A DNA stretch of 64,000 nucleotides from a virus, in the IMG/VR virus record IMGVR_UViG_3300028384_000675, positions 1-64,000 of that record. One strand, 5' to 3'. The position numbers and the translations under genes were made by a program. Shown here in pieces: positions 29,721 through 32,411 of the stretch; the stretch's first letter is position 1, and the number at the start of each line of letters is the position of its first letter. Under the pieces are notes generated by a model. The model had not been told where the DNA came from. It did no database searches and saw only the letters and a program-made list of their open reading frames with translations.

Positions 29721-30827
29721 TTAGAGATCATATGGGTCGAACAGTTGCCACGGTTCGTATTTCATCCTTTCTTGTTCTTCGATTTGCTGAATTGCGTCGC
29801 TACCGTCGTCAATAAAACCGAACGGAACGATGTCGTCTTCGATCTGTCTCATCTGTTGTTCGAACATCATCTGCTTTAGGTTGATGTCTGTCATATCAGC
29901 GAACATCTGAGTTGTAATGAAGTACCCTAGCATCACGAGGTTCATCATGAGGTCGTCGTGGTTTCCTTCGCTTGCTTCGTATGACACTCCTTTCGATACA
30001 AAGGTAGACACTTCCATGATCGTATCTTCGTCAACAATCTCAAGCTTTTTCTCTTCTAGCAAATCTTTAATACCCGAGCAACCGAGACGCTTGACCCTTC
30101 GTGTCATCTCAATACCAATAGCATTCGCTTTCACGGCAGACTCTACGTGTACGTTCTCGTACTCCAGATCGTAGTACAGACCATTACAGACGACTGCGCC
30201 CTGATCGTTCGACTCAATTACGACGTATGCATTGTTGTATGCTTTCGCGATTTTATATATAATATCAGGGAAGAGTATTGGAGAAATAGTGTTGTTCCGA
30301 TACGCAGCGACCTGACGAAACGGGCGTGTGGCAATGTCGATAACTGTAAAAGTCGAATAGTCCTGTCCTCTTCCTTTCGCTACGTCAACAGTCATGAGAT
30401 ATTCATGACTGGGTTGTGTTTCTTCGTATACGTTGAGGCAACCATTCTCCAATACTTTGATCGGTGGCAGTGCCCTAAGATTCAATAGAGTTTCTGCGCC
30501 GATCAAAGTATCCCCCGTTCCGAAGAACGTGTTGTGGGAAGTAAACGATTTATCGTGATTATAAACTTTGCCGTTTTCTACATTCAGCGGGTCATAAAAA
30601 TATTGCCCCTCGCAAACTTCCCTACGAACAACAACCTTTCCTATGTCATCTCCGGAGAAAATATCTTTGGCAAACTTGACTTGACTGGTAATAACAAATT
30701 TATGATTGATTGCGGTGCAAAGTTCAGTGCCGTCTTCGAATACAAAACGAAACCCATAATCATGCCAATAACGATTTACACCATGAAATTTTTGAAATCC
30801 AGAAGGTGTTAAGATTTGTATATCGAT
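29721..30827 (-). CDS. gp17: Split-intein C-fragment fused to terminase large subunit C-terminal (nuclease) half; start codon uncertain (candidate ATC 30827)
   Basis: Open frame from 30842 (after TAG): NGEAPIDIQILTPSGF...TAINHKF...YDPLNVENG...SHN|TFFGTGDTLIGAE...DVAKGRGQDYS...IESND...HDDLMM. Confidence 0.85.
   Translation of the reverse strand: MDIQILTPSGFQKFHGVNRYWHDYGFRFVFEDGTELCTAINHKFVITSQVKFAKDIFSGDDIGKVVVRREVCEGQYFYDPLNVENGKVYNHDKSFTSHNTFFGTGDTLIGAETLLNLRALPPIKVLENGCLNVYEETQPSHEYLMTVDVAKGRGQDYSTFTVIDIATRPFRQVAAYRNNTISPILFPDIIYKIAKAYNNAYVVIESNDQGAVVCNGLYYDLEYENVHVESAVKANAIGIEMTRRVKRLGCSGIKDLLEEKKLEIVDEDTIMEVSTFVSKGVSYEASEGNHDDLMMNLVMLGYFITTQMFADMTDINLKQMMFEQQMRQIEDDIVPFGFIDDGSDAIQQIEEQERMKYEPWQLFDPYDL
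30531..30827 (-). mobile_element. Split intein, IntC (~99 aa)
   Basis: Block B TxxxH (TAINH), block F (FYDPLNVE), block G terminal His-Asn then Thr+1. Confidence 0.9.
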
Positions 30828-31531
30828 GGGAGCCTCTCCGTTCTAGTTTTTCCAGACACTATATCTGCAATGCATTTCGCAGTAACATTATAATACTCGC
30901 AATATTTTCTGGCGAATGTAGAGTATGGAGTTATCGGTTTCCAACCAGAATTTTTCTTTCTTCTTTCTTCGTTAATCGGTATCAGTTCTTCTCTTATTTT
31001 ATCTAGTTCTTTCGCAAAAGTATCTCTGATCTCATCAACTTGATTGTCTGTCAATTTTGGCGGTCTTAATCTTTTTCCTGATTTGGATTCTTTTTGTTTT
31101 TTAATATATTCTGGGTTTTTGTAATTTTCTTTACTTCTCTTTGACCTTATGTGAAATCCTTCTCTTTTTGCGCGTTTTTTTGCTGACTCAGACATTTTTT
31201 TTCTTTGTTCGTCAGAAAACTTATATCCCAATGTTGTGAAGTTAGGCGAGTTGTGCCCATACCCTTTACCAGAAGGAGATTCGTTCAACCCATTATTAAA
31301 CGTATCAAGGGAATTAATCCAATACTCTTCTCTTCCTTCAATATAGTTTCGGTCGTTAGATTCTTCAAGTATTTGTACATCGAAATCGTCACCTTTAAAA
31401 CGATTAGACCTTTTGTGATCGCCCATTCGAATCTTGAATCTACGTTGTATGGTAATCCCAACGTATTGCTTTGAGTCTGACTTCCTCTTCAAAAGATAAA
31501 CCAAGTGTTTCTCTTGTTCTGATACAGTCAT
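30809..31531 (-). mobile_element. Free-standing GIY-YIG homing endonuclease (Seg-like, NUMOD3 + HTH)
   Basis: VYLL...QYVGIT...R...H, E.YWI...DTF.NGLN, GYKFSDEQRKKMS. AT-rich relative to flanks. Confidence 0.88.
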
Positions 31532-31604
31532 AAAAATCGCCTATTCTTATTTCGTATATAATATTATTTATAAGAACAGTTATTTGAGAACGACTTTCTA
31601 GGCA
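31440..31604 (-). mobile_element. Split intein, IntN (block A only; 54 aa including tail)
   Basis: Cys1 at 31602-31604: CLESRSQITVLINNIIYEIRIGDFY. Confidence 0.88.
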
Positions 31605-32411
31605 ATTACCAAATTCTTGGTCGAACTGTAATTGCGAAGTGTTTGAAATTGTTTGTCGTTTCCACTCCTCGTCTCGACCAGGAACGTCCCACCAATTTAC
31701 CGTGAATGCTTTGTACTCATTAACCTTTTGTACAGCACCTTCCCATATTTTATGATAGGTGTTTCCGATACCATTCGCTGTAGATGTAATAATAACTTTC
31801 GTATCTTTACCAGATGAGATAACAGGATAGGTTGAAGTATAGAACTCAGCAGCACGCTCAACAAACGCAAACTCGTCCAGAAAAAGCAGGTTAACAGACA
31901 TACCACGTATAGAAGAACCAGAGGTGGCAGCAGCAATAATGCGAGAATTATTACTAAACTCAATTGAACCTTTATTAAGAGCGCGACACCCTGGCTGTAG
32001 AAAAAACGGTAAATTTTCAAGCGCCAAGGTGACTCTGGCGAGCATCTCTCGAGCGGTTGCACCTTTGTTAGCGAGGACAGCGATCGTCTTCTCAGGGTGA
32101 AATATAGCATACCATAATAGATAAACAACGGATGAAATAGACTTACCACTTTGTCGACAGGCGAGGACGATCGAGAAACGATTATCATTAAAGTGGTCAA
32201 ACATATTTTCTTGATATGGGTAAAGGTCAAAGTTGACAAGTCCTTTATCGAGAGAAATGATTTTTACATATGTTCGTGCAAAATATGCAGGATCTTTCAT
32301 ACATTTAGCATACTCAACGACCTGTTCTTCAGTCCATTGTTGTTGTACGCCATCCCGTTTTACATTAATATTACCAAGGTAACTATCATTCATCCTGATC
32401 GCTAGCATCAA
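31440..32411 (-). CDS. gp17: Terminase large subunit N-terminal (ATPase) half fused to split-intein N-fragment
   Basis: LYPYQ, CRQSGKS, IRG.S.NLLFLDEFAF, ITSTANG, WWDVPGRD..W, QEFGN|CLESRSQI. Confidence 0.95.
   Translation of the reverse strand: MMLAIRMNDSYLGNINVKRDGVQQQWTEEQVVEYAKCMKDPAYFARTYVKIISLDKGLVNFDLYPYQENMFDHFNDNRFSIVLACRQSGKSISSVVYLLWYAIFHPEKTIAVLANKGATAREMLARVTLALENLPFFLQPGCRALNKGSIEFSNNSRIIAAATSGSSIRGMSVNLLFLDEFAFVERAAEFYTSTYPVISSGKDTKVIITSTANGIGNTYHKIWEGAVQKVNEYKAFTVNWWDVPGRDEEWKRQTISNTSQLQFDQEFGNCLESRSQITVLINNIIYEIRIGDFYDCIRTRETLGLSFEEEVRLKAIRWDYHTT
31565..31572 (-). promoter_or_regulatory. Late promoter inside IntN coding sequence, upstream of endonuclease
   Basis: TATAAATA about 35 nt upstream of the ATG at 31531. 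Confidence 0.7.

Follow-up and report, generated by a model that had tools for sequence, protein, structure and literature searches.

The IMG/VR virus record IMGVR_UViG_3300028384_000675 comes from an uncultured marine T4-like phage in which an essential DNA-packaging gene is split by a split intein of a known type together with a homing endonuclease gene (HEG). We analyzed positions 1 to 64,000 of this record (the window). TerS, gene 17, and the tail sheath gene lie on its minus strand in T4 order, and gene 17, which encodes the large terminase (TerL), consists of three overlapping open reading frames (ORFs): the N-terminal half of the terminase fused to an N-terminal intein fragment (TerL-N and IntN), a GIY-YIG HEG, and a C-terminal intein fragment fused to the C-terminal half of the terminase (IntC and TerL-C), the last of which lacks a canonical initiation codon (Table 1). 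A first-pass annotation of the window had described gene 17 as two halves with a GIY-YIG gene lying between them and overlapping both, and all of its coordinates were reproduced here. TerL-N may start at TTG 32411 or at ATG 32408 or 32393; its extein shares 73% identity with the uninterrupted TerL of Phage C48C1, to which the C-extein can also be aligned. The HEG product matched Pfam PF01541 (4.6e-7) and phrog_314, “homing endonuclease” (2.7e-17). The N-half ORF overlaps the HEG by 92 nt, and its out-of-frame tail contains the motif EE(I/V)RLKAIRW, which is conserved among relatives. The HEG in turn overlaps IntC by 19 nt, counted from the ATC through the last base of the TAA, and a frame check placed IntC in the -1 frame relative to the HEG, as annotated. 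The HEG ORF stands free between the intein halves, as in fractured genes, and is intact in both of the sub-lineages described below.

Table 1. Features of the fractured terminase gene in the window
Feature	Position	Strand	Remarks
TerL-N + IntN ORF	32411..31440	-	reads ...QFDQEFGN, then CLESRSQ...IGDFYD, then 28 further codons that enter the HEG out of frame
TerL N-extein, ATPase domain	31605..32411	-	Pfam Terminase_6N 1.9e-19; ends ...QFDQEFGN
IntN, 26 residues, Cys1 to ...IGDFYD	31527..31604	-	intein block A only; homologues in relatives
TATAAATA, T4-type late-promoter motif inside IntN codons	31565..31572	-	33 nt upstream of HEG ATG
Tail of N-half ORF, 28 codons in second frame over HEG 5' end	31440..31526	-	stop TAG 31442-31440
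GIY-YIG HEG, free-standing, 240 aa	30809..31531	-	ATG 31531 to TAA 30811-30809
TAG closing the IntC frame upstream	30843..30845	-	L004/L005 have TGA at window 30839-30837 instead
Shine-Dalgarno sequence GGAGAGG	30833..30839	-	GGAG (30839-30836) 8 nt, GAGG 5 nt before ATC
ATC, Ile6 of open frame	30825..30827	-	best candidate initiation codon by Shine-Dalgarno spacing
ATA, Ile8 of open frame	30819..30821	-	alternative candidate; aligned with ATG/TTG starts of relatives
IntC, 99 residues from ATC to ...TSHN	30531..30827	-	block B TxxxH-like TAINH, block F YDPLNV, block G SHN
TerL C-extein, nuclease domain	29721..30530	-	Thr+1 first (TFFGTGDTLI...); stop TAA 29723-29721; Pfam Terminase_6C 1.9e-18

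As the first-pass annotation had stated, the IntC frame contains no ATG, GTG, or TTG before TTG 30506; the frame opens after the TAG, and TTG 30506 is located eight codons inside the C-extein. The only translatable codons left before the conserved ILTPSGF strand are GAG GCT CCC ATC GAT ATA CAA ATC. The same start-less sequence was found in L002 and L003 (99% amino acid identity), in L004 and L005 (88% amino acid identity), and in the ENA contig L171 (97.5% nucleotide identity); in other words, six independent contigs belonging to two sub-lineages are all start-less. In L004 and L005, the closing TGA lies two codons further downstream than the TAG of the window and is synonymous in the HEG frame. 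Because the closing stops differ in this way, and the changes alter the HEG product conservatively or not at all, the stretch upstream of IntC is not translated in the IntC frame.

Several trivial causes of the missing start were excluded. A sequencing or assembly error, for which the first-pass annotation had proposed a check, was ruled out because the six assemblies agree and because no indel is listed in the HEG/IntC overlap for contigs from three studies (four public runs); 237 substitutions are not itemized in that table, so individual contigs may differ at the ATC. A lineage-specific indel was ruled out by the frame relation of HEG and IntC, which is the same in all relatives. Readthrough or recoding of the stop from the in-frame ATG at 30875-30873 was likewise rejected, because L004 and L005 carry two further stops there, TAA, TGA, and TAG are all used, and no tRNA is encoded; the last two observations, which hold for the genome as a whole, indicate a standard genetic code. 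Finally, 58 of the 61 long ORFs of the genome have canonical starts, and only the IntC gene and one other oddity stand out, which rules out a genome-wide habit of weak starts. The loss of the start is therefore a local event and not the product of a relaxed code. In fractured genes, the 3' end of the HEG is proposed to supply the initiator Met codon; here, the overlap is present but the IntC frame within it has no ATG, GTG, or TTG.

Sequence comparison placed the intein among the atypically split inteins of the AceL-TerL/GOS-TerL/Cat family, in agreement with the first-pass assignment to the AceL-TerL/GOS-TerL type around a GIY-YIG HEG. IntC matched the “consensus engineered intein CatC” (PDB 6dsl_B) at 1.6e-11 as a single sequence and at 1.4e-25 as a profile of 10 IntC sequences. 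AceL-TerL and GOS-TerL are naturally atypically split TerL inteins, of which Cat is the consensus, and the known members have an IntN of 25-37 aa and an IntC of 104-115 aa (PMC11766414). The present intein shares with them the host gene, the split after block A, Cys1, the terminal His-Asn, and an IntC homologous to CatC, with an IntN of 26 aa and an IntC of 99 aa; it differs in having Thr at the +1 position, where the characterized members have Cys, in the 28-aa out-of-frame tail of the IntN ORF, and in the absence of a canonical initiation codon for IntC. The class 1 catalytic residues are present (Cys1 in CLESR, the C-terminal ...SHN, and Thr+1), and H103 and N104 are invariant across 22 IntC homologues. 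Furthermore, in Phage C48C1, TerL is uninterrupted and has QFDQEFGN-TFFGTGN at the junction, matching QFDQEFGN plus TFFGTGD residue for residue, as expected from the restored junction QEFGN-TFFGTGDTLI proposed in the first-pass annotation. Since that protein is continuous over the same junction, removal of the intein would restore a normal TerL. By analogy with the family, TerL-N-IntN and IntC-TerL-C would be made as separate proteins, the short IntN would dock on the long IntC, and trans-splicing via Cys1, His-Asn, and Thr+1 would yield TerL.

The start-less half of the gene is under strong constraint. Between the window and L005, the pair used for all selection measures, dN/dS was 0.05 for IntC (34 synonymous versus 13 non-synonymous differences), 0.07 for the HEG, and 0.014 for TerL-N, and TerL-C showed a pN of 0.19 against a saturated pS of 0.78. 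No second TerL-C was found within the 93-kb record. The strong purifying selection and the lack of a second copy argue that the IntC-TerL-C protein is made and needed. If instead the intein were defunct, translation of TerL-C would begin at a canonical codon within the frame (TTG 30506 here, GTG in relatives) and the product would act non-covalently with TerL-N, or the gene would be decaying. TTG 30506 is preceded by a G-rich stretch, and fractured genes that are not spliced exist, for example, Aeh1 nrdA (cited in PMC2677866). However, IntC would then be non-coding, and yet its dN/dS is 0.05 and all splicing motifs are kept; moreover, TTG 30506 is CTT in L005, and the first GTG of L005 is GTA in the window, so that no internal canonical start is conserved. 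We regard a defunct intein as hardly credible.

Between the two sub-lineages, the cassette has a dS of about 1-1.4, whereas the flanking exteins are far more diverged (dS saturated; 27% amino acid difference in the C-extein). This is consistent with transfer of the cassette, including the start-less IntC, by homing between two phage backgrounds, and the cassette would thus have continued to spread into two phage lineages. In run X9, one low-depth contig joins position 31605, the last base of the N-extein, to position 30368 inside the C-extein and skips the cassette; it probably derives from a co-occurring relative whose TerL is uninterrupted and could serve as a target for homing.

An exhaustive phmmer search returned 76 matches; a word-index protein search returned only one. 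We analyzed 80 viral loci, four of them from the start-less lineage, together with about 20 protein-cluster representatives. In all of the other 76 viral loci, and in the cluster representatives, IntC either has an ATG, GTG, or TTG before ILTP or is continuous with the upstream coding sequence. The starts of the split forms lie 2-20 codons upstream of ILTP, and in most IntC-TerL-C proteins the Met aligns with residues 6-9 of the open frame: with Ile6 (ATC) in P0006, P0021, and L103, and with Ile8 (ATA) in L103 and L116-L120, the latter position being TTG in L106/L108-110. In a three-frame comparison, the whole family shared the HEG C-terminus, ..(W)KTRT..LPS(I/L)(Y/C)KS, with the TAA stop falling within the IntC codons ATC-TTA-ACA; the overlap is therefore ancient. 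In the nearest relatives with ATG (L099, L102, and L112; TTG in L115), the IntC start ATG-GAA-AAC is formed by an HEG codon ending in A followed by TGG (Trp). The HEG codons of the window at this place are TCT GGA, and the ATG is gone.

The comparison extends to the region preceding the candidate codons. Where the relatives read CAC/AAA GTT CT(C/A/G) CC(A/T), with no Shine-Dalgarno (SD) sequence, the start-less lineage reads GAG AGG CTC CCA and the L108 lineage AAG GAG CTA CCA. An SD sequence 5 nt before ATC occurs only in these two lineages and in none that have an upstream ATG, and GAGAGG is invariant in all start-less contigs. In this genome, 19 of 58 genes have GGAG or GAGG at -18..-4, against a background of 5.6%, and the usual geometry is GGAG, 7-9 nt, and ATG. 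The distance from GGAG is 8 nt to ATC 30827 and 14 nt to ATA 30821. Thus, the SD spacing favors ATC, whereas homology to the starts of relatives supports both ATC and ATA. The GGAG, the ATC, and the 4-bp GGAG/CUCC hairpin of the first-pass annotation are all present; the hairpin region at the HEG/IntC junction, however, folds no better than shuffled sequences (z -0.14).

On the basis of these comparisons, IntC-TerL-C probably starts by SD-directed initiation at AUC or AUA. A non-AUG (AUC/AUA) start had been suggested in the first-pass annotation, there as reinitiation coupled to HEG translation, and such a start behind the SD sequence fits the comparative data best. The sequence features of a near-cognate AUH start are found here: no canonical start upstream of the conserved N-terminal residues, an SD sequence at a working distance, and conservation in relatives. 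In Escherichia coli, which may not be the host of this phage, initiation at AUC and AUA reaches about 0.02-3% of the AUG level and gives an N-terminal Met (bioRxiv 10.1101/063800). As the comparison shows, the ancestral cassette carried the IntC start ATG GAA AAC within the 3' end of the HEG; in this lineage, the ATG was lost through the change to TCT GGA, after which stops accumulated in the untranslated leader, different ones in each sub-lineage, and HEG codons further downstream became GAG AGG, creating the SD sequence. IntC-TerL-C would then be initiated with fMet at AUC 30827-30825 or AUA 30821-30819, with a strength of probably a few percent of AUG or less. The phage may get by with such weak initiation, or even benefit from it, since little terminase is required and too much of the free nuclease half could do harm.

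Three points weigh against this explanation. Full yield requires IntC-TerL-C and TerL-N in a ratio of about 1:1, but near-cognate starts are weak. Mutation of ATA to ATG, a single change, would restore a canonical start at the cost of Tyr to Cys in the HEG tail, which relatives tolerate (SICKS versus SIYKS), and it has not occurred; the only explanation we can offer is weak or absent selection for more protein. In addition, ATC and ATA, as well as de novo and coupled initiation, are not separable by sequence alone, and the start codon is a candidate derived from sequence comparison.

The first-pass annotation had offered a second route, a -1 frameshift, for which we found no support. A programmed shift between 30836 and 30812 that takes ribosomes from the HEG frame to that of IntC would give a GIY-YIG-IntC-TerL-C fusion; the frame relation is the required one, tRNA-Pro could re-pair from CCA to CCC at 30830-30827, and a database protein, P0005 (98% identical), reads ...TRTER-SPIDIQ..., with the HEG fused in frame to IntC. 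However, the interval contains no X-XXY-YYZ slippery heptamer, no stimulatory structure follows it (the same z -0.14), and the C-CCA site is no less conserved where relatives start IntC at an ATG of their own, and so is not a dedicated signal. SD sequences that stimulate -1 shifts lie about 10 nt from the slip site (dnaX), whereas here the distance is 3-6 nt, which is not a stimulatory spacing. P0005 itself requires a 1-nt insertion absent from the 6 assemblies and is also frameshifted in the 3' end of the extein; it is probably the product of an error-prone contig, and a pattern scan of metagenomes for the fusion variant found only the form with the 5-nt spacer, in 2 contigs. Frameshifting is thus a very improbable source of the protein, although not quite as improbable as a defunct intein.

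The position of the HEG stop raises the question of whether translation of the HEG contributes. The UAA at 30811-30809 follows the AUC at a distance of 16 nt, the AUA at 10 nt, and a third near-cognate codon, also AUC, at 4 nt. Ribosomes ending there may add to SD-directed initiation by reinitiating, and the late-promoter motif TATAAATA inside the IntN codons would allow the HEG and IntC-TerL-C to be co-transcribed. This motif has 13 matches in the window versus 2.2 expected; 12 of the 13 are on the coding strand, and most sit immediately ahead of a gene. A predicted hairpin ahead of the HEG start is no better than shuffles (z -1.1). Contigs from RNA libraries (X15 and X16) cross the entire locus with no junction, but they may stem from carried-over DNA and so indicate neither the presence nor the absence of transcription.

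In a stricter form, the coupling would be obligatory, with IntC-TerL-C depending entirely on ribosomes that come from translating the HEG and move back from its UAA to AUC or AUA. The family-wide placement of the HEG stop inside ATC-TTA-ACA, the three near-cognate codons 4, 10, and 16 nt upstream of it, and the cassette's own putative late promoter, through which both genes could share one mRNA, are all compatible with this; overlaps of 6-69 bp between HEG and IntC have also been reported in 15 loci, where the HEG 3' end was proposed to supply the downstream start (Dassa et al., PMC2677866). However, a good SD sequence at the normal spacing of this genome suggests independent loading of 30S subunits, and the ribosome-binding site of the HEG itself looks weak (no GGAG or GAGG before ATG 31531), so that coupling alone would give very little protein. 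Furthermore, in L106/L108-110, the HEG body is missing and only its last ~25 nt are kept, which indicates that the family needs no HEG translation as such, although this lineage has a TTG start. We therefore consider obligatory coupling unlikely. Slightly less likely still is the idea that the HEG has made itself indispensable, the C-half of the terminase arising only from ribosomes that first translate the HEG, by reinitiation or a rare -1 shift; if true, selection on packaging would maintain HEG translation, an “addiction” module at the level of translation for a selfish gene. The suggestion that the HEG is undeletable is weakened by the L106/L108-110 deletion, again with the reservation of the TTG, and what the family retains is the 3' end of the HEG and not its translation. 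SD-directed initiation at AUC or AUA, with or without a contribution from reinitiation, remains our preferred explanation.

The relatives also revealed various arrangements of the same intein. IntN homologues were found in L099-L120, and contiguous inteins in L111 and L114. In L106/L108-110, the GIY-YIG HEG is deleted save for ~27 codons at the 5' end and ~8 codons at the 3' end that provide the SD sequence and start (about 2370-2530 in L108); the TerL-N/IntN ORF ends at the family TAA inside the IntC codons, and the IntC TTG start is at the position of the window ATA. L111 (1595-3625) has a clean contiguous (cis) mini-intein without an HEG, and L114 (1451-3613) has a contiguous intein in which remnants of the HEG end are fused in frame between IntN and IntC. 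Judging from these sequences, the TerL intein family includes intact, invaded, deleted, and re-fused states. In L117 (921-2504), a zinc-finger-like endonuclease (...CPHCQKTGS...RRWHFDNC...) is not free-standing but fused in frame to the C-terminus of TerL-N/IntN. In P0023, P0029, and P0062, a second IntN-like segment, again from this intein family, begins a few extein residues after IntC, suggesting that some TerL genes carry two atypically split inteins a few residues apart. Distant IntC relatives (29-32% identical) also occur in the terminases of cultured phages: in the multiply interrupted and poorly annotated TerL of Campylobacter phages IBB35 and CP21 (L007/L008), within a contiguous 704-aa TerL of Vibrio phage vB_VmeM-32 (L009), and in Vibrio phage VP-1 (L010).

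Elsewhere on the minus strand, a 3,839-codon repeat-protein gene (ORF 65406-53887) is cut in mid-repeat by adjacent in-frame TAG TAA codons at window 53889-53884. The frame reads ...FDSFG-stop-stop-VAATADKIIVGA... and runs on for 308 codons (ORF 53883-52957), the first 189 of which include no ATG, GTG, or TTG. Possible explanations are readthrough, a C-terminal module with a start of its own, or a gene broken recently.

The fractured terminase has practical consequences. Gene finders truncate or miss the essential IntC-TerL-C, as illustrated by the database representative of the sister lineage, which begins 32 residues into IntC. Surveys that mine this family of split inteins for protein-engineering tools will therefore count too few of them and set their boundaries wrongly. 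The locus also illustrates, step by step, how a mobile intein-HEG cassette can lose the start codon that it brought for the downstream half, with expression then probably rescued by an SD sequence and a near-cognate codon, and it makes a coupling between HEG translation and host-gene expression testable.

Fractured genes, including the Lake Gatun terminase locus, were described by Dassa, London, Stoddard, Schueler-Furman, and Pietrokovski in 2009 (PMC2677866). As in those genes, the present locus has a host gene divided by a split intein, a free-standing GIY-YIG HEG between the halves, an overlap of the HEG 3' end with the IntC 5' end, and a putative late-promoter motif ahead of the HEG, here TATAAATA. 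Unlike in those genes, the ATG has been lost, and an SD sequence plus near-cognate codons are in its place. Near-cognate AUU starts are found in E. coli infC and pcnB. The candidate start resembles these and the codons of Hecht et al. (10.1101/063800) in that an AUH codon behind an SD sequence is the only possible start of a conserved protein, with low output expected. No autoregulatory logic like that of IF3 and infC is evident here, and, in contrast to infC and pcnB, the start would serve an essential half of a phage gene inside the 3' end of another gene and would have arisen secondarily in a mobile element. The intein and the fractured-gene family are thus known, and what sets this locus apart, with good support from the comparisons, is an essential half-gene whose only possible start appears to be a near-cognate codon.

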